A stretch of DNA of 64,000 nt from an uncultured virus (IMG/VR IMGVR_UViG_3300024999_000036) (taxonomy: Duplodnaviria > Heunggongvirae > Uroviricota > Caudoviricetes). Of the stretch, positions 1 through 64,000 are shown one piece after another. Both the position numbers and the translations under genes were made by a program. Under the pieces are notes generated by a model. That model was not told the DNA's origin. It did not search any database and was given only the letters and a program-made list of their open reading frames with translations. Positions within the stretch are counted from its first letter, which is position 1. Each line of letters begins with the position of its first letter. The DNA is taken from the IMG/VR virus record IMGVR_UViG_3300024999_000036. One strand, given 5' to 3'.

Positions 1-41
1 TAAATATGGGTGATGACCGACCATCGTGGAGGTAATATAAT

Positions 42-821
42 ATGAACATTGGTACTGATAATTTTGTTACAAGATTAAAATGTTATGGTAAAAATGGATT
101 GAATATTTGTTCTATGCCATCTGATAAGTTTCATAAAAAAGGTAAACCTTATATTGAATGTTTTGATTATTTTAAAGAAGATAATTATGGTTTTTCTGAA
201 GAAACTAAGGAACAATTTATAATTGAAAAAAATTATGTAAATGAATACATAACAGATATGCATGAATTATATATCTTAGGGTTGGAATATTTATTGAAAA
301 ATTGTAGACCTAATTCTTTTGTAGAAAATAATTTTTATGATGGTATTGTTTCCAATCTTAAACAAGAAGCAAGATATTTGAATGATATACTTGGATACCA
401 TAGAAGGAAAGATAATACAAATGGATATATATCAACATTAAAATCTTTAAGAGAAACATTAGATTTGATTAAAAAATATGACTGGCAATTGATGTATTCT
501 GAGTATGGGGTAGAAAATCATACTAGTATTATTAATGTTTATAATGATAATTTAGATATAGCAATATCTTCAGGTAAATCAAGAGATATAATTGATCATT
601 TAATTAGAGAAAGAGATAGTGTTAAATTAGTTACTGAAATTGCAGTATGGGAACAGAATCATGAGGGAAATATTAGAAATCATAAAGTATGGAGAACTAA
701 TATTCCTTATAATAAAGGAATTAGTATTAGAGATAAAGATGGATTTACTGCATTACATATTGGTAATGATGAATTAGTTATAAAAGGTGATACTTTGAGT
801 ATTATGGATAAGAAAATATAA
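42..821 (+). CDS. Hypothetical protein; N-terminus resembles part of the phage tail-spike protein
   Basis: SD GGAGGT upstream. FVTRLKCYGKNGLNI...YIECFDYF aligns by eye with IITRLFVFGNNDISV...FIEDFSFY of 39374..42409. Confidence 0.65.
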   Translation: MNIGTDNFVTRLKCYGKNGLNICSMPSDKFHKKGKPYIECFDYFKEDNYGFSEETKEQFIIEKNYVNEYITDMHELYILGLEYLLKNCRPNSFVENNFYDGIVSNLKQEARYLNDILGYHRRKDNTNGYISTLKSLRETLDLIKKYDWQLMYSEYGVENHTSIINVYNDNLDIAISSGKSRDIIDHLIRERDSVKLVTEIAVWEQNHEGNIRNHKVWRTNIPYNKGISIRDKDGFTALHIGNDELVIKGDTLSIMDKKI

Positions 822-969
822 TTTTTGTAAGTTATAAGGACATCAATTTTATTGGTGTCTTTTTATATTTACAAAATAAAATGTAACCAAAGCAAGATTT
901 TATTAAGTTTAGATAGTGTCTTACCACTAAAAATATTGGGTCATGTCCTACCATGAGAAGGAGGCAAAT

Positions 970-2082
970 ATGCCAAGTTATCAGAATTTTAATTCAAATA
1001 AAAAATTTATTCCAAAAGAATTATTAAACAAAAACAGAGTTTTAACTATGTCAAATAATCGAAAGTGTGATTATTTAATTGTTGATGTAGGTAATAATTT
1101 AGCATCTATAATGGCGATTAATAATCAAGGTAATAGCAAAGATATTTTAGTAGTTAAAACATTTGAGAATAAAAAATTTTCTGAACTTGTAGATGAAGCA
1201 TATTGGTTATGTACTGAATTTGGAATAAGAATTATTTTAGCAGATATTCGTGGATCAGGATTAGGATTTATTGATACATTTAAAATTAATATTAAGCAAG
1301 ATTATATACAGATTAAAGCATTAGATGGAAATAAAATAAATCAATTTGTAAATATTAATGAGATAGTAAATGATTTAAATAATGGTGTTTTAAGATTTTT
1401 GCAAACACCAGAATTAGCAAAAAATACATATATTAAACCGTTTTTAGGATTGTCTAATATTATTGAATATCATAAAGAAACAGATAAATTAATTGATGAA
1501 GTTAATAATCTTGAAATTAAAATGAGATTAGGTAATATTGTTTTGGGTCGTTTAGATGATATTATTGGGAAAACAAGATTAAATTGTTTACTAATGTTTT
1601 ATTCTTATCCTATGAATTGTGTAGATAGTGAAAATAATACGGATAACAAACAATATGATATTGCTAAACGAATGGCACAATATGAAGTAATTCATGGTAC
1701 ATTTTATAAATATTTATTTAAATGTATAGAGAATGAGAAAATTAATGTGATTTTTTATCATAGTAATAAAAATAAGATTGAACAGTTTAAAAATATAGTT
1801 AAAGAAAATAATTTTGTTAATTTAAGTGAAAAATATATTGATAGAATTATTGTATCTAAGGATAGATTTGAAATTATATTTTTAAATAGTAGTCAAATTA
1901 GGTTTATTTATGCTAGTGATAATGCAAGAGGTTATAGATATCATTTTGCTGTAGTGGATAGAGAAATTGAAAAAGATATGTTTGATAATGTGATTGCTGG
2001 TAAGAGTGTTTTATTTGATATGGCAAAAAGAGATGGTAGGTTAGAGAAAGATAATTATTGTATTGATTTTATTGAGATGTAG
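970..2082 (+). CDS. Domain-permuted terminase large subunit paralog (nuclease-like domain first, partial ATPase last)
   Basis: SD AAGGAGG before ATG 970. LIVDV, ILADIRGSGLGFID, TDKLIDEVNNL and IFLNSSQIRFI..DNARGYR match motifs of the TerL at 4110..5898. Confidence 0.7.
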   Translation: MPSYQNFNSNKKFIPKELLNKNRVLTMSNNRKCDYLIVDVGNNLASIMAINNQGNSKDILVVKTFENKKFSELVDEAYWLCTEFGIRIILADIRGSGLGFIDTFKINIKQDYIQIKALDGNKINQFVNINEIVNDLNNGVLRFLQTPELAKNTYIKPFLGLSNIIEYHKETDKLIDEVNNLEIKMRLGNIVLGRLDDIIGKTRLNCLLMFYSYPMNCVDSENNTDNKQYDIAKRMAQYEVIHGTFYKYLFKCIENEKINVIFYHSNKNKIEQFKNIVKENNFVNLSEKYIDRIIVSKDRFEIIFLNSSQIRFIYASDNARGYRYHFAVVDREIEKDMFDNVIAGKSVLFDMAKRDGRLEKDNYCIDFIEM

Positions 2083-2121
2083 ATTAAAATTTGGATTATT
2101 AATATAAATTTAATAGATTTT

Positions 2122-2251
2122 AAGAAGTTAGGTATCTAGGGGAGTAGCTACCCCTCTCTACACAACCTAACTTCTTTTTTATTTTTAATTTTAAGGGGAA
2201 ATGTGTAGAGAATTATAAAATAAATTGTGTAGAAAGGGATTGGTGATATAA
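2122..2251 (+). promoter_or_regulatory. Terminator-like structured leader of endonuclease gene
   Basis: Stem AAGAAGTTAGGT/ACCTAACTTCTT plus T-tract; inner hairpin AGGGG-AGTAGCTA-CCCCT; TCTCTACACA complementary to 2202-2211 and largely to 2225-2233. Confidence 0.65.
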
Positions 2252-3091
2252 TTGTTAATTAGTAAAGAGGTTGAAGTAAAATTACATTCAACAAATATCA
2301 GATATTATGAAGAAAAAGGATACCCAATACCAAGAAAAAAAGATAAACATGGAAGATTTCTAGTTCCTAGAGGATCTACAATTATAGTAAAAATTAAAGA
2401 TTTGCAATTAAAAAGTAATGTAGATATTGATATTGAATGTGATTACTGTGGAATTAAATTTAAAAGAAGGTATGCAGATCATACTTTTATACATAATAAA
2501 GATAATAATATTGATAATGATGCTTGTGAAGATTGTGCAATTTTAAAATTTAAAGAAGTATATTTTTTAAAACATGGAGTTAAAAATCCATTTTGCCAAA
2601 ATGAAGTTAGACAGAAAATAGCAAATACATTTAGTAAAAACAATTCTGTGAGTACATCTAAACAACAAATATATTTACATAATTTATTAGGTGGTGAATT
2701 AAATTATGCTAATGATACTCCTGTTTTAGATATTGCATATCCAGATGAGAAAATTTATCTTGAATATAATGGTGGAGGCCACAACTTAAAAGTTAAATTA
2801 GGTATTGAAACAGAAGAAGAATTTAAAAATAAAGAATTAAGAAGATATCATTATTTAAAAGATAAAGGATGGAAAGCAATATTTATAGATTCTAATGAGG
2901 ATTTTTTACCAAAAGATAATATGATAATTGATATTATTAAAATAGCAAAAGATTATTTATCTAAAGATAATAAATGGATTAAATTTAAAATAGATGAAAA
3001 TAAGGTTATTTATGGTTCTAAATTAGAAGAAATATTTGATTATGGACAATTAAGAAAAATAAAAGATAAAGATATAGAAATAGTTAGTTAA
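2252..3091 (+). CDS. Free-standing homing-endonuclease-like protein (Zn finger plus DUF559/Vsr-like nuclease)
   Basis: CDYC and CEDC pairs; LDIAYPDEKIYLEYNGGGH nuclease motif. Confidence 0.75.
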   Translation: MLISKEVEVKLHSTNIRYYEEKGYPIPRKKDKHGRFLVPRGSTIIVKIKDLQLKSNVDIDIECDYCGIKFKRRYADHTFIHNKDNNIDNDACEDCAILKFKEVYFLKHGVKNPFCQNEVRQKIANTFSKNNSVSTSKQQIYLHNLLGGELNYANDTPVLDIAYPDEKIYLEYNGGGHNLKVKLGIETEEEFKNKELRRYHYLKDKGWKAIFIDSNEDFLPKDNMIIDIIKIAKDYLSKDNKWIKFKIDENKVIYGSKLEEIFDYGQLRKIKDKDIEIVS

Positions 3092-3130
3092 ATATTTATT
3101 AATTTTTATAAAAGGAGTGAATGTGGCTTT

Positions 3131-4126
3131 ATGCCAAAATCAAAAAAAAACAGTAATCAACAAATAAAGTCACAAACTAAAAAAATATGTGATAATTGTA
3201 AAAGAGAAATTGCATTAACTCAATATTATAATACAAATTCTGTATTATCAGTAGATGGGAAATTAAATATCTGTAAAGTTTGTGTAAAGTCTATGATTGA
3301 TTATAATAATATGGAAACAATATATAAAATTCTTCAATTATTAGATATTCCATTTATATATTCATATTGGAGGTCTGCAATAGAAAAAAATCCAGAAGAT
3401 CCTTGGAGTATATATATAAGAATAGCTAATTCAAAAATGAATGAATTTAAAAAGGGTACTTGGAAAGATAGTAAATTTAAACCTGAAAGTATTAATCCCG
3501 TAAAATTAAATATAGATCAAATAATTACAAGTAATAATCATTTTGATGTTACTAGCGAAATGATATTAAAATGGGGAAATAAATATGATCCAGAAGACTA
3601 TTATGAATTAGAGCAATTTTATAATGATATGCAAAGAACCAATAGTATTGAAACTACTCAAGATATGATTTATTTAAAAAAATTAGCAATTATATCTTTA
3701 AAAATGGATAAAGAATTAGAAGAGGGAAACTATGACGAAGCTAAAAAATTAGGAGATTTATTTTCTAAATATATGGCAGATTCAAAGTTTCGTGCAATGG
3801 ATAAAACTGACGCAGATAAAACTGGTGGTATCAGAAACTTTTGTACTATTTATTCTGAAGTTGAGAAAGATGGATTTATACCTCCTTGGGAATATTATAG
3901 AAAAATAAAAGGCATTAATCAAGATATAGTAGATAAAACAATTATGCATATAGAAAATTTTACTTTAAAACTTAATAAGGCAGAAAAAATGATGTCTCCT
4001 CCATTTGATACACCTAAATTAGAATTGGATGAAATAGATACAGAGAACGTACTAATAATTAATGATATTGAAGTTGATGAAGATGATATAATTGGAGATG
4101 ATGATAACAATGGCATCTCAAAATAA
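3131..4126 (+). CDS. Putative terminase small subunit / pre-terminase Zn-finger protein
   Basis: Directly upstream of TerL and overlapping its start; CDNC and CKVC pairs. Confidence 0.6.
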   Translation: MPKSKKNSNQQIKSQTKKICDNCKREIALTQYYNTNSVLSVDGKLNICKVCVKSMIDYNNMETIYKILQLLDIPFIYSYWRSAIEKNPEDPWSIYIRIANSKMNEFKKGTWKDSKFKPESINPVKLNIDQIITSNNHFDVTSEMILKWGNKYDPEDYYELEQFYNDMQRTNSIETTQDMIYLKKLAIISLKMDKELEEGNYDEAKKLGDLFSKYMADSKFRAMDKTDADKTGGIRNFCTIYSEVEKDGFIPPWEYYRKIKGINQDIVDKTIMHIENFTLKLNKAEKMMSPPFDTPKLELDEIDTENVLIINDIEVDEDDIIGDDDNNGISK

Positions 4127-5898
4127 TTTTAGTAAAAAAAGCAGAAGCATTAAAGATAGTGATACATTTTCTAATCCTCAGAATTTTGAAACTAATAATA
4201 TTAATAATTTACAAATAAAGAGTTTTGAAAATGTTAAAGATCAATGGAGAGAATTATGTAGTTATTTTAGGTGGTATCCCTGACAAATTTCTTGATTTTA
4301 TTTCACCCCCTGATTCTAAAATACAACTATATTATTATCAAAGAGTATATTTAAGAATAATGATGAGATATAGAAAGGTTTTCTTAACTGCTACTCGTGG
4401 AACTTCTAAAAGTTATCTTCAGAATTTAGCTTTTATCTTAAAATGTATTATGTTTGAAAAAACCAAACTTTTTACATGTGCGGTAGGGAAAGAACAAGCT
4501 GCAAAAATTACTGCTGATAATATTAATGATATTTTAGAGCATTATCCATTATTAAGAAAAGAAATAAAAATATTTACTGAAAATAAAGATTATACTAAAT
4601 TAATTTTCTATAATGGGTCAAAATACGATGTCGTTCAAATGCGTGATTCTACAAGAGGTGGTCGTAGGTACGGTGGAGCAATTGAAGAAATTTCAGATAA
4701 AAAATTTGATGGAAATATACTTAATGCTGTTGTAATTCCTCTTATGGCTAATGATCGTATAGCAGCATGTAGTGGTGTTGATCCAGAAGAAATACATAAA
4801 TGTGAATTATATATTACTACAGCAGGTACTCAACAACAATTTTCTTATGAAAAAATGTCAGAAGTTTATCAAGATATGCTTAATGGTAAATCTGCATTTT
4901 GTTTAGGCAATTCTTATGAACTTCCTTGTATGTATGGTCAATTAGATATAGATTTTATTGAAGAATTAAGAGAATCACCAACTTATTCAATATTAGATTT
5001 TATGCGTGAATATCAAAGTATATGGACTGGTTCAAGTTCAGATTCACTTGTTTCAGATGATAAATTGCAAAAGTGTAGAACTGTTCCATTTGCTGAATGG
5101 GAACATTGCGAAGATAATAATGTAATTTATTGTTTAGCATATGATGTTAGCAGAAATGAAGGAGATGAAAATGCTCTTTCTTGTTTGTCAGTTATAAAAT
5201 TAACTCCAAAAAGTAGTGGTAATTTTGTTAAAGAAGTTGTTAATTTATTTTCTATGGAAGGTCAACATGATACTTGGCAAGCAAAGTTTTTAAAGCAGAA
5301 AGTTAAAGAATTTAAATCAAGAATTTTAATTGTAGATGCAAATGGTATTGGAAGTGGTGTTGTAGATCAATTAGTTTTAGATTTAGATGACGGAAATCCT
5401 CCATATAAAGTAGTCAATGATGAGAAAGGAACATGGAAAAAATATGAATCAGATAATGGAATCCCAATGGTATTTGCATTAAAATCCCAAAATAAAGATA
5501 CCAAGAATAGTGATATGATAAATAATTTTATGCAGGTTTTTAATAAGTTAGATGTAGGTTTATTAAAAACTCCATATGAAGGCATAAAAGATTTAGAGAA
5601 AAAATTAAAACATAAAATTAAAAATAGTGATGAATTAGCAAATTTACAAATTCCATATATATTAACAGATAATTTATGTGAAGAAATTATGAATCTTAAA
5701 TATAAGCAGAATGGTAATGAAACAAAGATTGAAAGAATATCAAGAAGGATACAAAAAGATAAATTTTCTGCACTTTTATATGGTTTATGGTGGGTTTATT
5801 TAGAGGAGAAAAAAAATAAAATTCATAAACGTCCAAAAAACATCTCTCCCTCATCATATTTTGCCATAGCAAATAAATCATCAAGAGCAAGAAGATAA
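4110..5898 (+). CDS. terL: Terminase large subunit, two frames joined by a +1 shift at 4278-4284
   Basis: Frame A MASQNNF...YFRWYP* continues in the +1 frame as DKFLDFI. Walker A TATRGTSKS, Walker B GAIEE, ITTAG coupling motif, nuclease motifs LAYDV, IVDANGIG and QKDK. Confidence 0.88.
4269..4284 (+). promoter_or_regulatory. Putative programmed +1 ribosomal frameshift site (prfB-like)
   Basis: AGG TGG TAT CCC TGA C: internal SD-like hexamer, 3-nt spacer, shift-prone codon, UGA-C stop. Confidence 0.8.
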
Positions 5899-5986: not shown

Positions 5987-7564
5987 ATGTCCAACAATCA
6001 AAACCTCTCCCCTACCCTATTCTCATTAAAAAAATCATGGGAATCAGCAAAAAACTTTTCATTATCAAGAATAGGTGGATTATTTACAAATAAACGAAGA
6101 AATTTAAAAAACGTAACAATTGATAAAATAAAATTATGGTTAGGTAATCCACAAAAATATCAAAATGAGATACTTGATTTATCAGATAATCTATATGCAC
6201 CAGAAGGTATCTATAAAGTATTAGTAAACTTAACTACTAATATGGCTACATTAGATAATTATCTTCAACCTGATTTTTCTACAATGCAAAAATTAAAAGA
6301 AGAAATTGCTAATCAAACATCAAAAGAATTATCTGAAGAAGAATCACAAGAGATAATAAATAAACTTTTAAAGAATTTTAATAATGAATTTTCAACAGTT
6401 AGAAAATATATTGATAGTATAGATATAAAGAAAACTGGACGTAGAATTATTGAAAGTTTAGTTAGATATGGTGCTTATTGTGGATTTGAAAAGAATGATG
6501 GTAATTTCCCTTATTTATGGGATTTACCTATTAAATATGTTAGATTGAGATCGATAAAAAATAATCAATACACTGTTGAATTTAACTTCAAATATTTTGA
6601 AGAATTAGCAAGAGATAATGAATTATCTGAATTTGCATGGGATATTTACCCTGATGAATTTAAAATATTATACAATAAATATAAAACCAATTCAGATAGA
6701 TTAAGGTATCCTGAATGGCAACCTTTACCTAGTGATAAAATATGTTGTATTAAACTAGGGGGAGACAATGATACTTTTTTCTTGCCTTTGTTTAGTCAAT
6801 TATTTACTGAGTTGTATTTATTGAATGATTTAATTGATGAGGAGATTGAGAGTTCTAGAGATGATTCAATTAAACTCATAAATATTGAATTTCCACACGA
6901 TAAAGAAACTGGAATTCCACTTGTAGAACCTGATGTTGTATCTCAATGGGTGAATGTTGTAGCTTCAGGTGTCTCTGATAAAGTTACTATAACTGGATCT
7001 CCATATCCTTTACGTGAAATACCATTTAGAAGTATACAAAATGAAAAGACTAACTTAGCTGAATTTGCAAAATCGATGGCATATATGCAAGCAGGAGCAA
7101 ATCCACTACTATTAGGTGGTAGTTCTACTAATAGTTCAGTAGGTATTACGCAAAATCTAATATATATTCAGTCTCTAGTATTTAGTATGTTAGATAAAAT
7201 TCAAAGTTGGTTTAATTACCGTATTTCTAATGTTAATTTAAGAAAGAAATATACTTTTAAATTAAATATATGGAAAACTACATGGTATAACCAAAAAGAG
7301 ATGATTGATAATGAATATAAATTAACAACTATAGGAGGAAGTCTTAATGTTCTTGCTAGTAAGGTGGGACATTCAACAGAAGATTATAATTCAACTTTAG
7401 AATATGAGAATTTGGTAAAATCAAAGGATTTATGGTTACCTCCTATTAATATGAATCAAAATTCAGGAATTACAGATGATGAAGGTGGAAGGCCAAATAT
7501 TGCTGATGGAGATTTAAGTAATGGTGGTATAATTGCTAGAGATGGAGAAACTAACAAAAGGTAA
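5987..7564 (+). CDS. Portal protein
   Basis: 525 aa directly after TerL; SD AAGGAGG; C-terminal GGRP motif typical of portals. Confidence 0.8.
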   Translation: MSNNQNLSPTLFSLKKSWESAKNFSLSRIGGLFTNKRRNLKNVTIDKIKLWLGNPQKYQNEILDLSDNLYAPEGIYKVLVNLTTNMATLDNYLQPDFSTMQKLKEEIANQTSKELSEEESQEIINKLLKNFNNEFSTVRKYIDSIDIKKTGRRIIESLVRYGAYCGFEKNDGNFPYLWDLPIKYVRLRSIKNNQYTVEFNFKYFEELARDNELSEFAWDIYPDEFKILYNKYKTNSDRLRYPEWQPLPSDKICCIKLGGDNDTFFLPLFSQLFTELYLLNDLIDEEIESSRDDSIKLINIEFPHDKETGIPLVEPDVVSQWVNVVASGVSDKVTITGSPYPLREIPFRSIQNEKTNLAEFAKSMAYMQAGANPLLLGGSSTNSSVGITQNLIYIQSLVFSMLDKIQSWFNYRISNVNLRKKYTFKLNIWKTTWYNQKEMIDNEYKLTTIGGSLNVLASKVGHSTEDYNSTLEYENLVKSKDLWLPPINMNQNSGITDDEGGRPNIADGDLSNGGIIARDGETNKR

Positions 7565-18998: not shown

Positions 18999-19056
18999 CA
19001 AAATTTCGCTTTTATAATAATATACGATCCCACAAACCCTTTAAATATAAGGGTTT
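18999..19056 (+). repeat. Bipartite dispersed repeat, copy 1
   Basis: CAAAATTTCGCTTTTAT-18 nt-AAACCCTTTAAATATAAGGGTTT. Confidence 0.75.
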
Positions 19057-19177
19057 TTATTTTTGTATAACATCATAATATCACAACATTTCAACAAATC
19101 TCACAATAAATCACTCGATAAACTAAGCAAATCTTCTAACAACAATTCCATAACTTTCCATAAAGGAGGTAATCAAA

Positions 19178-19498
19178 ATGTCGATTGGTACAATTTTTCA
19201 TGCAGGTTACATTTCTAGCATTCCAGCAAACAAAATAGGTGATGCAAATTATGATCCTTGGTTTATATTAACATCAAACAATCAAATTATAAATTTCATA
19301 GACGCAAATGGTAACAAATGCAATCTCAATAGTCTATTCATTGAAGCAGAAAATACACCTTTAAAAATAAATATTGATAACTTTATCCTATATATTCCAG
19401 CAAATGAATCAAGAGAATATAATTTTGAGAGTATATCAAGTATTCAAGTTATGAATTTGGCAAATACAAAGTTACGATGGTCAGGACAATTTATATAG
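19178..19498 (+). CDS. Hypothetical protein
   Basis: SD AAGGAGGT; 106-aa ORF. Confidence 0.6.
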   Translation: MSIGTIFHAGYISSIPANKIGDANYDPWFILTSNNQIINFIDANGNKCNLNSLFIEAENTPLKINIDNFILYIPANESREYNFESISSIQVMNLANTKLRWSGQFI

Positions 19499-62439: not shown

Positions 62440-64000
62440 TTATATCTTTTTTGCAATTTCCCAATGAAAATAATCATATCGTACCAAGTTTCTAATATCA
62501 AAAGAATGTGTACTTGGTACACTATGAATATCAACAATAATTCCGTAAAATCCTAGATCATATTCATCTTCCTTATCCTCTTTTTTCTTAACGATGATAC
62601 GATCTATTAATATTTCTATAATTTTCCTTTTATATTCATAACTTATTTTATCATTAATAATATCATCTTTATATTTGTTCATTATTTCAAATACTTTAGA
62701 TGAAATTTCATTACTATATTTTTCTTGTTCTATTCTTTCATTGATTTTTTTAATTTCGTCTTGAAGATTTTTAATTTCAATGTTTATTTTAGATAAATCT
62801 TTTTCCATTTCATTTTCTGAAATTAAATCCAACATAAACATTTTTTTAATTTTTTCACGATTTTTATTCTTATCCTCTAAAAGTTTACTATGCAATTCAA
62901 ATTGTTTTAATAAAATATCATCATTTTTTTTCTCTCCTAATTTTTCCTTAAGTAAATTAGGATTAGTACACATATCTTTAATTTCATTCCAAACAGCATT
63001 ATCTAATTTATCAGCATGTATTGTTTTACTAAGACATTTATACGCCCCCATAGTTTTAGGATTTTTACCATTACATCTATAAACAAAATATTTCTTATTT
63101 TTATATCCATTATAAGTAGTACAAATTAATGATTTACCGCATATACCACATTTTAATTTAGATCTTAATAAATAATCATATTTTGTATTTGATTTTTTAT
63201 ATGTTTTATTTTCTTCTGCTTGTTTACGTGCTAATCCATATAATTCTTCTGAAATTATTGATGGTACTTCTGCATAAATCCAATCTGATTCATCTCTCCA
63301 AGTATATGTTTTCTTTTTATTTCCACTAGCAGTTCTTTCTCCTATGATTTTTTTACTTTGTCTTCTATTATAAATATATTTACCTATATATATTTCAGAT
63401 CGAAGTATTCTACTAATTGAACTTTTACACCAATTATCAGATTCTTTTCTTTTAGGTTGTACCCCCATATCAGATAATTTTGTTCCCATTTCGGTTAAAC
63501 TTAATTTTTCATATACGTACCACTTATAAATTAATTTAACAATTTCTGCTTCTTGCTCATTTATGATTAATTTACCTTCAATTAATTCATAGCCAAAAGG
63601 AGCAGACCTCATAGGCATAATTTTACCATCACGAGAAACTGCTTTTTCTCTTCCACTAGTAGTTCGCATTTTAATTCTTGCTAATTCATATTGCCCAAGT
63701 GAACTCATCATATTGAAGAATAATTGTCCTTCTGGTGTAGATTTAAATTCCATATCTACAAAAACAAGTTTAACATCATTGTTTTCAAATTCTCTACACA
63801 CAATTAATTTATTTGTTAAATCTCTTGAAAATCTATCAGGATGCATACAAATAACACCATTAATTAAACCATGTTTTATATCTTCTCTTAGTTTGTTTAA
63901 TTCAGTTCTGTCTAAATCCTCTCCTGTTTCTCCTTCTTCGCTATATATTTTCCATTCATTTATACCCATATTTTTTAATTCTTTTATACATTTTTCTGTT
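62440..64000 (-). CDS. Large serine recombinase (integrase), 5'-truncated by the window edge
   Basis: DRFSR, APFGY, recombinase domain, CGICG..YRC Zn ribbon, coiled coil; frame is open to base 64000. Confidence 0.92.
   Translation of the reverse strand, partial: TEKCIKELKNMGINEWKIYSEEGETGEDLDRTELNKLREDIKHGLINGVICMHPDRFSRDLTNKLIVCREFENNDVKLVFVDMEFKSTPEGQLFFNMMSSLGQYELARIKMRTTSGREKAVSRDGKIMPMRSAPFGYELIEGKLIINEQEAEIVKLIYKWYVYEKLSLTEMGTKLSDMGVQPKRKESDNWCKSSISRILRSEIYIGKYIYNRRQSKKIIGERTASGNKKKTYTWRDESDWIYAEVPSIISEELYGLARKQAEENKTYKKSNTKYDYLLRSKLKCGICGKSLICTTYNGYKNKKYFVYRCNGKNPKTMGAYKCLSKTIHADKLDNAVWNEIKDMCTNPNLLKEKLGEKKNDDILLKQFELHSKLLEDKNKNREKIKKMFMLDLISENEMEKDLSKINIEIKNLQDEIKKINERIEQEKYSNEISSKVFEIMNKYKDDIINDKISYEYKRKIIEILIDRIIVKKKEDKEDEYDLGFYGIIVDIHSVPSTHSFDIRNLVRYDYFHWEIAKKI

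Follow-up and report, generated by a model that had tools for sequence, protein, structure and literature searches.

A TerL-like protein with swapped domains and incomplete catalytic centers heads the packaging genes of an uncultured SPbeta-like phage

Why would a phage that encodes a complete large terminase (TerL) carry, 2 kb ahead of it, a shorter protein assembled from the same two domains in the opposite order and with neither catalytic center complete? The question is raised by positions 970 to 2,082 of DNA from an uncultured Caudoviricetes virus (IMG/VR record IMGVR_UViG_3300024999_000036); by "the window" we mean the whole 64,000-nucleotide stretch of this record that was analyzed. A preliminary description, made from the letters and their translations, had read the 370-residue product as a domain-permuted and probably inactive paralog of TerL. 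The comparisons presented here indicate that the protein very probably derives from TerL with its domains swapped, and that it is probably non-catalytic. Its gene is real, conserved, and lineage-specific, and in this SPbeta-like phage it stands first in the packaging operon. The best explanation that we can offer overall, a permuted and non-catalytic TerL look-alike that acts by binding, is a tentative one, held at somewhat less than even confidence.

A nuclease fold and an ATPase core in reversed order

Two alignments underlie the comparison with TerL, one of 30 members of the permuted-protein family (A1) and one of 23 YonF-type TerLs (A3), and the residue counts given below refer to these same sets. 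When the two profiles were aligned with hhalign, residues 10–207 of the permuted protein paired with TerL residues 307–553 (probability 98.3%, E 1.7e-14). All of the motif pairs that had been picked out by eye from the letters fall in aligned columns, including YLIVDV with LAYDV, ILADIRGSGLGFID with LIVDANGIGSGV.D, ETDKLIDEVNNL with LTDNLCEEIMNL, and GKTR with QKDK (permuted family given first). The similarity of the N-terminal part is significant only by profiles and structure, since plain BLASTP against the window TerL pairs residues 92–217 with TerL 362–518 at only E 0.09.

Structure comparison leads to the same assignment. For the whole protein, AF2 gave a model with a mean pLDDT of 82.2 and a pTM of 0.55, the latter being consistent with two domains whose mutual placement is uncertain. 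When this model was compared by VIA with 48,161 PDB representatives, the best 14 matches were all terminase nuclease domains (Z 13.1–16.9, root-mean-square deviation 2.7–3.6 over 166–187 residues), covering model residues 5–220 and including D6E (Z 16.9), T4 gp17 (16.4), E217 (15.5), Sf6 (15.2), and HCMV (13.1). The next class consists of Holliday-junction resolvases, from Z 9.1 downward. Resolvases of the RuvC/Ydc2 type have the RNase H-like core in common with this domain (Ydc2 Z 9.1, poxvirus resolvase 8.4, RuvC 7.9), but their scores are well short of those of the 14 terminase nucleases, and the sequence profiles tie the N-terminal domain to TerL specifically. Foldseek matched this domain to the G20c nuclease at E 3.8e-6 and also returned terminases from BFVD, and its neighbors in the ESM Atlas are terminase clusters; a search of PDB chain sequences with the permuted-family profile gave nothing below E 0.48. 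Both VIA and hhalign place the N-terminal domain among the terminase-type RNase H-like nuclease domains.

The C-terminal part, aligned on its own, pairs with TerL residues 106–207, a segment that starts beyond Walker A and extends past Walker B (probability 97.7%, E 1.9e-12), and plain BLASTP against the window TerL gives E 2e-4 for residues 257–361 against TerL 70–175. In PHROGs, residues 259–353 match phrog_15503 at E 6.9e-6, the family that the ATPase half of TerL matches at E 3.8e-42. A model of this domain built alone from 41 sequences reaches a pLDDT of 92.2 and a pTM of 0.85, and viral packaging ATPases account for 9 of its 10 best VIA matches (PhiV-1 TerL with Z 9.1, Sf6 8.9, P74-26 8.7, T4 8.6, D6E 8.3, HK97 7.8, phi29 7.7, full-length T4 7.3, and HSV 7.3), the remaining one being NAT10 at Z 8.4. 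These Z values are middling, and they carry weight because the sequence profiles agree. Foldseek likewise lists only TerL ATPase domains in its first 13 rows, 2 of them with E ≤ 1e-3. The aligned ranges in solved TerLs start at or just before the Walker A region (residues 37–178 in P74-26, 161–286 in T4), and at this place the permuted protein has one long helix, residues 224–254 (2–32 in the C-domain model), so that its ATPase core starts at the helix that comes after the P-loop in TerL. The E values of the two hhalign comparisons rule out chance similarity to TerL, and the checks made for each domain by profile, Foldseek, and VIA bear out the earlier proposal that both are of terminase origin and stand in the reverse of the TerL order (Table 1).

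A search of 1.84 billion representative proteins with the permuted-family profile, which returned 221 matches at E ≤ 1e-3, retrieved the same relationship from the other side. At least 14 of the best 150 of these 221 matches are TerL-sized proteins (527–613 amino acids) that were matched in both halves with the order swapped, profile positions ~260–338 falling on TerL residues ~105–215 and positions ~107–220 on TerL residues ~410–570. The three of these that were checked against PHROGs are all YonF-type TerLs.

Set beside a YonF-type TerL, either YonF of Brevibacillus phage Sundance or the TerL of the window itself, the permuted protein thus has two homologous domains with the same folds and shares several motifs outside the catalytic centers (LRFLQTPE for LLKTP, ETD.LI.E..N for TD.L.EE..N, F.NGS, and RG), whereas it is about 200 residues shorter and has the domain order reversed. 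It is without the N-terminal region, strand beta-1, the P-loop, the catalytic Glu, the third nuclease Asp, and the C-terminal tail. Such an architecture probably arose either from a tandem duplication of TerL in which the outer halves were then lost, or from the joining of two halves of a split gene.

Both catalytic centers are incomplete

Residues that are invariant in all 23 TerLs are R96 and K100 of Walker A, the catalytic Glu E193, and the nuclease residues D345, D409, K549, and D550, and position 101 is always S or T. In the permuted family, the D550 column contains S (16 members), L (6), T (3), A (2), G, N, or I, with no acidic residue in any of the 30, so that the change from QKDK to GKTR does represent the loss of the last acidic position. 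Nor is there an acidic residue in the E193 column, where S, T, N, K, or R is found. The 30 sequences share no conserved Walker A or P-loop; 4 of them contain chance matches to the pattern, each at a different and non-homologous site, in keeping with the early reading of the C-terminal part as a TerL ATPase segment that has no Walker A. Compared with a large terminase, the protein is lacking in Walker A, the catalytic Glu, a complete nuclease acidic triad (D345, D409, and D550 in TerL), and the domain order, and both catalytic centers are incomplete in all 30 aligned members.

Other parts of the active sites have been kept. The first nuclease Asp, D39, is present in 27/30 sequences (N in two and T in one), and the second, D92, is Asp in 29 and Glu in one. 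The description of the protein as a probably inactive paralog holds for its kinship with TerL and for the incomplete state of both centers, while inactivity itself has to be put more cautiously, given how largely D39 and D92 are kept. The RG motif is nearly invariant (R320 in 29/30, G321 in 30/30), as is the Walker B Asp, D330 (30/30), and the region of the RG motif is presumably that of the trans-acting arginine finger of TerL. PDB entry 4znj, which is among the Foldseek matches, is the R139A mutant of P74-26. H168, E170, and E177 are invariant in the family and sit in a helix that TerL also conserves (TD.L.EE..NL), and because TerL conserves the same helix these residues appear to be inherited and not to form a new site. 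The non-catalytic features of TerL that have been retained are LRFLQTPE, H.ETD.LI.E..N, NGS, RG, and the Walker B Asp.

The most conserved part of the protein lies near its N-terminus (Table 1). Across residues 21–35 the amino-acid conservation is 0.98 and synonymous codons vary, with five codons used for R31 and four for L36, so that the constraint on residues 16–36 acts on the protein and not on the DNA. The varying codons also rule out that the motif is invariant owing to a signal in the DNA, such as a pac site. Although the model is less confident here (pLDDT 68 for residues 21–30), the conservation pattern would fit a candidate binding peptide or surface.

Conservation, selection, and distribution

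There are 56 homologs at E ≤ 1e-3, with 41–100% identity and mostly 348–384 amino acids in length, and the identical 370-residue form is present in the public protein collection (P0003). None of the 56 has a Pfam domain, and all are named solely "hypothetical protein". Nei-Gojobori dN/dS ratios lie between 0.15 and 0.55 overall in 12/12 pairs and below 0.6 for each domain, except in one pair whose C domains are identical; judged by these ratios, both domains are under purifying selection. Full-length homologs and ratios of this size rule out a decaying pseudogene, which disposes of the concern, voiced at the outset, that the homologs might be nothing else.

No family for the protein exists in Pfam, NCBIfam, or PADLOC. 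The PADLOC search (E ≤ 0.01) gave nothing for the permuted protein or 8 of its relatives, a result of little weight, as the library dates from 2023 and covers defense rather than anti-defense proteins. A tblastn search of 50,697 GenBank phage records found no relative, and a pattern scan with two peptide words through one genome for each of 185,579 species gave 319 matches, none of which was confirmed. TerLs that are 70–72% identical to that of the window occur in Paenibacillus genomes, and among the GenBank phages that share a YonF-type TerL (SPbeta-type phages, Sundance, and Lactococcus 949-type phages) there was likewise no relative of the permuted protein. Because it was not found in GenBank phages or genomes even though related TerLs occur there, the permuted protein appears to be an accessory of one uncultured lineage; at the sensitivity used, the failure to find a relative also suggests that it does not belong to YonF-type packaging machines in general. 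The proteins that hold a comparable position in SPbeta-type phages were examined as possible homologs and rejected, with hhalign probabilities of 0.11% for YonJ of phi3T, 0.17% for SUNDANCE_17, and 0.48% for YonH.

Separate domains and a family of small TerL cores

The two domains also occur apart. The profile search described above and the list of homologs include proteins of 201–219 amino acids that end right past the N domain (P0055–P0058, P0181, P0190, P0191), and in 5/7 of these the first Asp is replaced by N or Y. Other proteins contain the C domain only (P0194–P0196), the C domain after unrelated N-terminal regions (P0184–P0186), or the N domain before an unrelated C-terminal region (P0183).

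A much larger group, about 90 of the best 150 of the 221 matches, consists of proteins of 85–175 amino acids that match the C domain only. An alignment of 32 of these (A2) has a mean column identity of 23%, and by hhalign it pairs with A1 over 112 columns, residues ~240–353 of the permuted protein, with a probability of 99.65% and E 4.8e-25. The hidden Markov model built from A2 matches the C domain of the window and of 22/23 loci encoding the permuted protein (there was no row for L001) at E 1e-29 to 6e-18, and it also matches the part of the TerLs in these loci that follows Walker A, at E 2.6e-20 to 1.5e-3. Similarity over the whole domain, together with the shared NGS, RG, and Walker B Asp, makes the C domain a member of this P-loop-less TerL-core family. 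Motifs of the small proteins include a Cys in the first helix, F.NGS.I, RG.+.H..I.D, and a conserved Pro. They have no family in Pfam, NCBIfam, or PADLOC, and 12/13 of those tested show a weak match to phrog_15503, which is itself a TerL ATPase fragment family. From these profile comparisons, the small TerL cores are a large, very diverse, and unnamed family in big Firmicute-type phages.

Members such as P0203, P0215, and P0227 have the same domain and motifs as the C domain of the permuted protein, differing in that they stand alone, are not beside TerL where context could be seen, and sometimes occur in several copies. This context comes from very few records: a locus search starting from single small-family proteins gave no locus for one query and one locus for another. 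A 127-kb provirus record carries two small copies and a TerL, all mutually distant, and a 178-kb record with the permuted gene carries an extra small copy of 113 amino acids. Of five further phage records, four cultured or deposited ones show just their TerL, and the fifth, that of the cultured Clostridium phage c-st, encodes a probable member of the small family in the hypothetical protein CST043 (hhalign probability 89%, E 2e-6). The sites of the small proteins are P0203–P0322, G001:C1:46424-46792 and 19019-19309, G002:C1:2950-3249, and AP008983.1 35844-36434.

A fixed place ahead of an exchangeable terminase cassette

The locus finder returned 23 loci on viral contigs from a few metagenomes, duplicates included (L001 is identical to the window, and L003 = L004, L008 = L018, L012 = L013, L016 = L017, and L022 = L023). 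A YonG-like gene lies downstream of the permuted gene on the same strand in 21/23 loci, as does TerL, for which both misses are at contig ends, and the portal gene follows in 17/23. In 11/23 loci the permuted gene is separated from the terminase genes by a homing-endonuclease-like ORF, which is absent in the other 12. In L022/L023 the C domain is encoded without the N domain, as a 148-amino-acid ORF. In L016 (1–330) and L017 (1–370) the gene copy is truncated at its 5' end, the first ~62 codons being gone and no in-frame start being left. A short out-of-frame ORF with its own ribosome-binding site runs into this copy, which abuts the apparent C-terminal end of an hsdS-like gene (translation read by eye); these two contigs may represent the edge of a defective prophage.

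Constant position is accompanied by only weak co-variation with the terminase. Among 14 loci, pairwise identity of the permuted protein ranges from 52.6 to 100% with a median of 61%, and that of TerL from 20 to 100% with a median of 26% (91 pairs each). TerL and the YonG-like protein are well correlated (Spearman 0.72 over 66 pairs), as would be expected of a cassette of small terminase (TerS) and TerL, compared with 0.30 for the permuted protein against TerL, 0.36 against the portal, and 0.22 against the YonG-like protein; p-values for these coefficients are unreliable because the pairs are not independent. The discordance is most evident in single pairs of loci: the permuted proteins of L005 and L006 are 95% identical and their TerLs 24%, those of L009 and L010 90% and 26%, and those of L011 and L014 93% and 26%, while for the window and L021 the values are 57% for the permuted protein and 79% for TerL.

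On this comparison of sequences, the permuted protein is not matched to its own terminase. Its partner is probably not the cognate terminase, because near-identical copies adjoin TerS-TerL cassettes that are only 24–26% identical and because phages with a 70% identical TerL show no detected copy.

The YonG-like gene and TerL (window 3131–5898, L002–L023) have been exchanged as one cassette among otherwise related phages, and at least five TerL types, 20–30% identical to one another, adjoin the conserved permuted gene. Portal identities follow a third pattern, apart from that of TerL and the YonG-like protein. Homing endonucleases may help to explain the swapping of TerS-TerL cassettes. Additional HNH or homing-endonuclease genes were seen farther upstream in relatives (L018 580–1383 and 5462–6298), amid methyltransferase and helicase genes.

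Surroundings of the gene in the window

The features of the window are collected in Table 1. The open frame of the permuted protein extends from 943 to 2082 on the plus strand, and within it the ATG at 970, which follows a Shine-Dalgarno-like sequence, is the likely start codon. The terminator-like hairpin ahead of the gene is the sole site of this kind within positions 1–4400, where shuffled sequence has a mean of 0.5. Downstream, the YonG-like protein matches its counterpart in Brevibacillus phage Sundance by BLASTP at E 2e-51, and the TerL of the window is 45% identical to YonF of the same phage. Gene order is the YonG-YonF-YonE order of SPbeta-type phages. The YonG-like protein is presumed to be the TerS partner of TerL. 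YonF has been described as a large-terminase homolog and YonE as a putative portal (PMC8880864). The large serine recombinase near the other end of the window would be compatible with a temperate SPbeta-like phage.

Table 1. Features of the 64,000-nucleotide window, with positions counted from its first letter
Feature	Position	Strand	Remarks
Terminator-like hairpin with T-run	836..862	+	Separates the upstream ORF from the permuted-protein gene; consensus match only
Shine-Dalgarno-like AAGGAGG	958..964	+	5 nt ahead of ATG 970; direct sequence reading
Permuted TerL-like protein gene	970..2082	+	Open frame; product 370 amino acids; stop included
N-terminal domain, TerL-type RNase H-like nuclease fold	997..1623	+	Residues ~10-218; third catalytic Asp missing
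Conserved stretch K.LLNKNRVLTMSNNRKC.YL	1015..1077	+	Residues 16-36; most conserved part of the protein; invariant columns in A1
C-terminal domain, TerL ATPase core	1645..2079	+	Residues ~226-370; begins past the P-loop position
Homing-endonuclease-like ORF	2252..3091	+	phrog_12131, E 7.7e-25; variable slot that precedes the terminase genes
YonG-like protein	3131..4126	+	phrog_3314, E 3.4e-63
YonF-type TerL, two frames (4110-4283, 4231-5898)	4110..5898	+	phrog_2 TerL, E 2.3e-20
Portal protein, YonE-like position	5987..7564	+	phrog_2739, E 4.7e-62
Large serine recombinase/integrase	62440..63966	-	phrog_95, E 2.6e-85

The preliminary description had also placed the gene beside a tail mosaic, which is not what the surroundings show. 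The ORF at 42–821 resembles a minor tail protein over ~40 N-terminal residues only (phrog_6211, E 3.6e-9), and farther upstream in L001, the contig identical to the window (L001 1–3483), there are exonuclease-like, ClpP-like protease, and unknown genes. The presence of these genes means that the stretch upstream of the permuted gene is not a tail module, and the terminator-like hairpin lies between.

The TerL of the window is split. Its first ~57 codons (4110–4283) end at a TGA through which relatives of 584–595 amino acids read. Relative to the intact L021 (TAT CCT GAT), the window has one extra C at this site (4269–4284), which reads AGGTGG TAT CCC TGA C. The Shine-Dalgarno-like AGGTGG three bases upstream of CCC_UGA gives the site what we take to be a resemblance to the prfB frameshift cassette. 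CCC_UGA is a "shifty stop" prone to +1 shifting in Listeria phages (PMC3082878). The same truncated TerL form of 555 amino acids is recorded from several contigs. The frame break may reflect a +1 frameshift, either programmed or tolerated, or else a genuine defect or an error that has recurred in assembly.

Possible roles and their precedents

Our search of the open-access literature turned up no account of a TerL paralog that is permuted or inactivated in both centers. The closest described proteins are TerL itself and its standalone ATPase-like paralogs, T4 vs.8 and Ksap1/Ksap2. The report on them (10.64898/2026.04.30.721860) describes these as phage proteins that fit the TerL pocket of Avs2 and activate it, states that Upx recognizes the TerL ATPase core, and notes that vs.8 keeps Walker A and Walker B and derives from a T4-type TerL. 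They resemble the permuted family in being phage-encoded, lineage-restricted look-alikes of the TerL ATPase; they differ in that the permuted family has no P-loop and that, in the window protein, the core is fused behind a dead nuclease domain. As a possible relative, T4 vs.8 was rejected, since hhalign gave probabilities of 0.13% against the permuted family and 0.25% against YonF-type TerL and Walker A is absent from the permuted family.

Among tailed-phage proteins TerL is the most conserved, and it is a main target of pattern-recognition immunity in bacteria through Avs1-3 and Upx (PMC13581612, 10.64898/2026.04.30.721860). In the explanation that we prefer, the permuted protein would act through binding instead of catalysis, as a TerL look-alike produced alongside the terminase, and it would occupy something normally bound by TerL, either a TerL-sensing defense protein of the host or the packaging machinery of a rival phage. 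A mimic whose partner is something besides its own TerL is possible but slightly more tentative than the explanation as a whole. The decoy system suggested in the preliminary description, directed at competing phages or at terminase-sensing defenses of the host, would be a hypothesis of this kind, which the sequence patterns fit without proving it. That vs.8 and Ksap1/2 engage Avs2 offers a precedent. A mimic fits because the protein is uncoupled from TerL, patchy and lineage-restricted in its distribution, and shuffled in its domains, and because its small relatives are scattered and multi-copy; from these sequence patterns, an accessory role of a conflict type would be compatible with the uncoupling, the absence elsewhere, the shuffling, and the scattered relatives alike. 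The more specific proposal, that the permuted protein and the small family are both phage-made terminase mimics used in conflict, we regard as unlikely at present. Such mimics would bind sensors of the TerL fold (Avs-like or Upx-like) without assembly, or poison the packaging motors of co-infecting phages, and the frequent swapping of TerS-TerL cassettes would belong to the same arms race.

Several observations weigh against a binding mimic. With D39 and D92 largely retained, and with H168, E170, and E177 invariant, a remodeled, weak, or metal-dependent nuclease site could be present. The place of the gene ahead of the terminase genes, the RG motif, the Walker B Asp, and the TerL surface motifs would suit a role in the phage's own packaging at least as well, and weak co-variation would be compatible with a protein that binds TerL where it is conserved, for instance at the ATP site. 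Anti-defense genes are more often early, and the permuted gene heads a late-looking operon. The known paralogs vs.8 and Ksap1/2 trigger Avs2 and do not block it (10.64898/2026.04.30.721860); since they activate Avs2, a look-alike could be a liability rather than a decoy. A complex prediction for TerL (A3) with the permuted protein (A1) gave a score of 0.00 in two runs without controls and carries no weight either way.

Ranked second, below the mimic, and considered somewhat unlikely, is a pseudo-subunit that would regulate the packaging motor of the phage itself. Here the ATPase-like core would dock beside the TerL ATPase and supply or withhold the RG arginine, and the dead nuclease domain would occupy the TerL nuclease or portal site, so as to time initiation or the headful cut. 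The clamp-loader delta-prime subunit, which cannot bind ATP and keeps an arginine that acts on the neighbor's site, offers a parallel. By analogy with it, a non-catalytic pseudo-subunit could offer its RG arginine to the ATP site of a neighboring TerL, although the likeness is one of concept, delta-prime being of the AAA+ fold class and not homologous to the permuted protein. The constant place of the gene, first in the operon, with the YonG-like gene and TerL each following in 21/23 loci, speaks for such a subunit, as do the nearly invariant R320 and G321, the invariant Walker B Asp, the retained TerL surface motifs, and the purifying selection on both domains. It is harder to reconcile with a Spearman coefficient of 0.30 with TerL, against 0.72 for TerL and the YonG-like protein, and with copies that are 90–95% identical beside TerLs that are 24–26% identical; GenBank phages sharing the YonF-type TerL have no detected relative, YonJ, YonH, and SUNDANCE_17 are not homologs, and natural variants in L022/L023 do without the N domain. 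An active, remodeled nuclease, either structure-specific or a pac-site accessory whose ATPase-like domain would serve oligomerization or DNA binding, would draw on the intact RNase H-like fold, on the two of three catalytic acids that are largely kept, on the invariant H168, E170, and E177, and on the proximity to the terminase genes, next to which HNH proteins play a comparable role. The third acid, however, is missing throughout the family and invariant in every TerL, 3/30 full-length members have N or T in place of the first Asp, which is also altered in most of the N-only relatives, the invariant His and Glu residues belong to a helix that TerL conserves, and some phages have dropped the N domain entirely, all of which makes this alternative quite improbable.

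Least probable by far is a functionless relic of terminase-cassette turnover that drifts or hitchhikes with a homing endonuclease. The frequent swapping of TerS-TerL cassettes in this lineage, the endonuclease-like ORF that follows in 11/23 loci, and the 5'-truncated copy of L016/L017, with no in-frame start, are what such a relic might leave behind, but frames remain open at full length down to 41% identity, omega is 0.15–0.55 in every pair compared, patches of the protein are invariant despite varying synonymous codons, the ribosome-binding site is strong, and the gene is present in 12/23 loci without a following endonuclease.

The permuted protein is a natural separation-of-function variant, in which the folds and surfaces of TerL have been kept and both of its chemistries probably lost, and this makes it a candidate for regulating or mimicking the packaging motor. 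If it is true that these proteins bind the partners or sensors of TerL, they would represent a novel class of proteins that regulate packaging or antagonize immunity; otherwise, they would still illustrate clearly how domains can be permuted and pseudo-enzymes evolve within a core viral machine.

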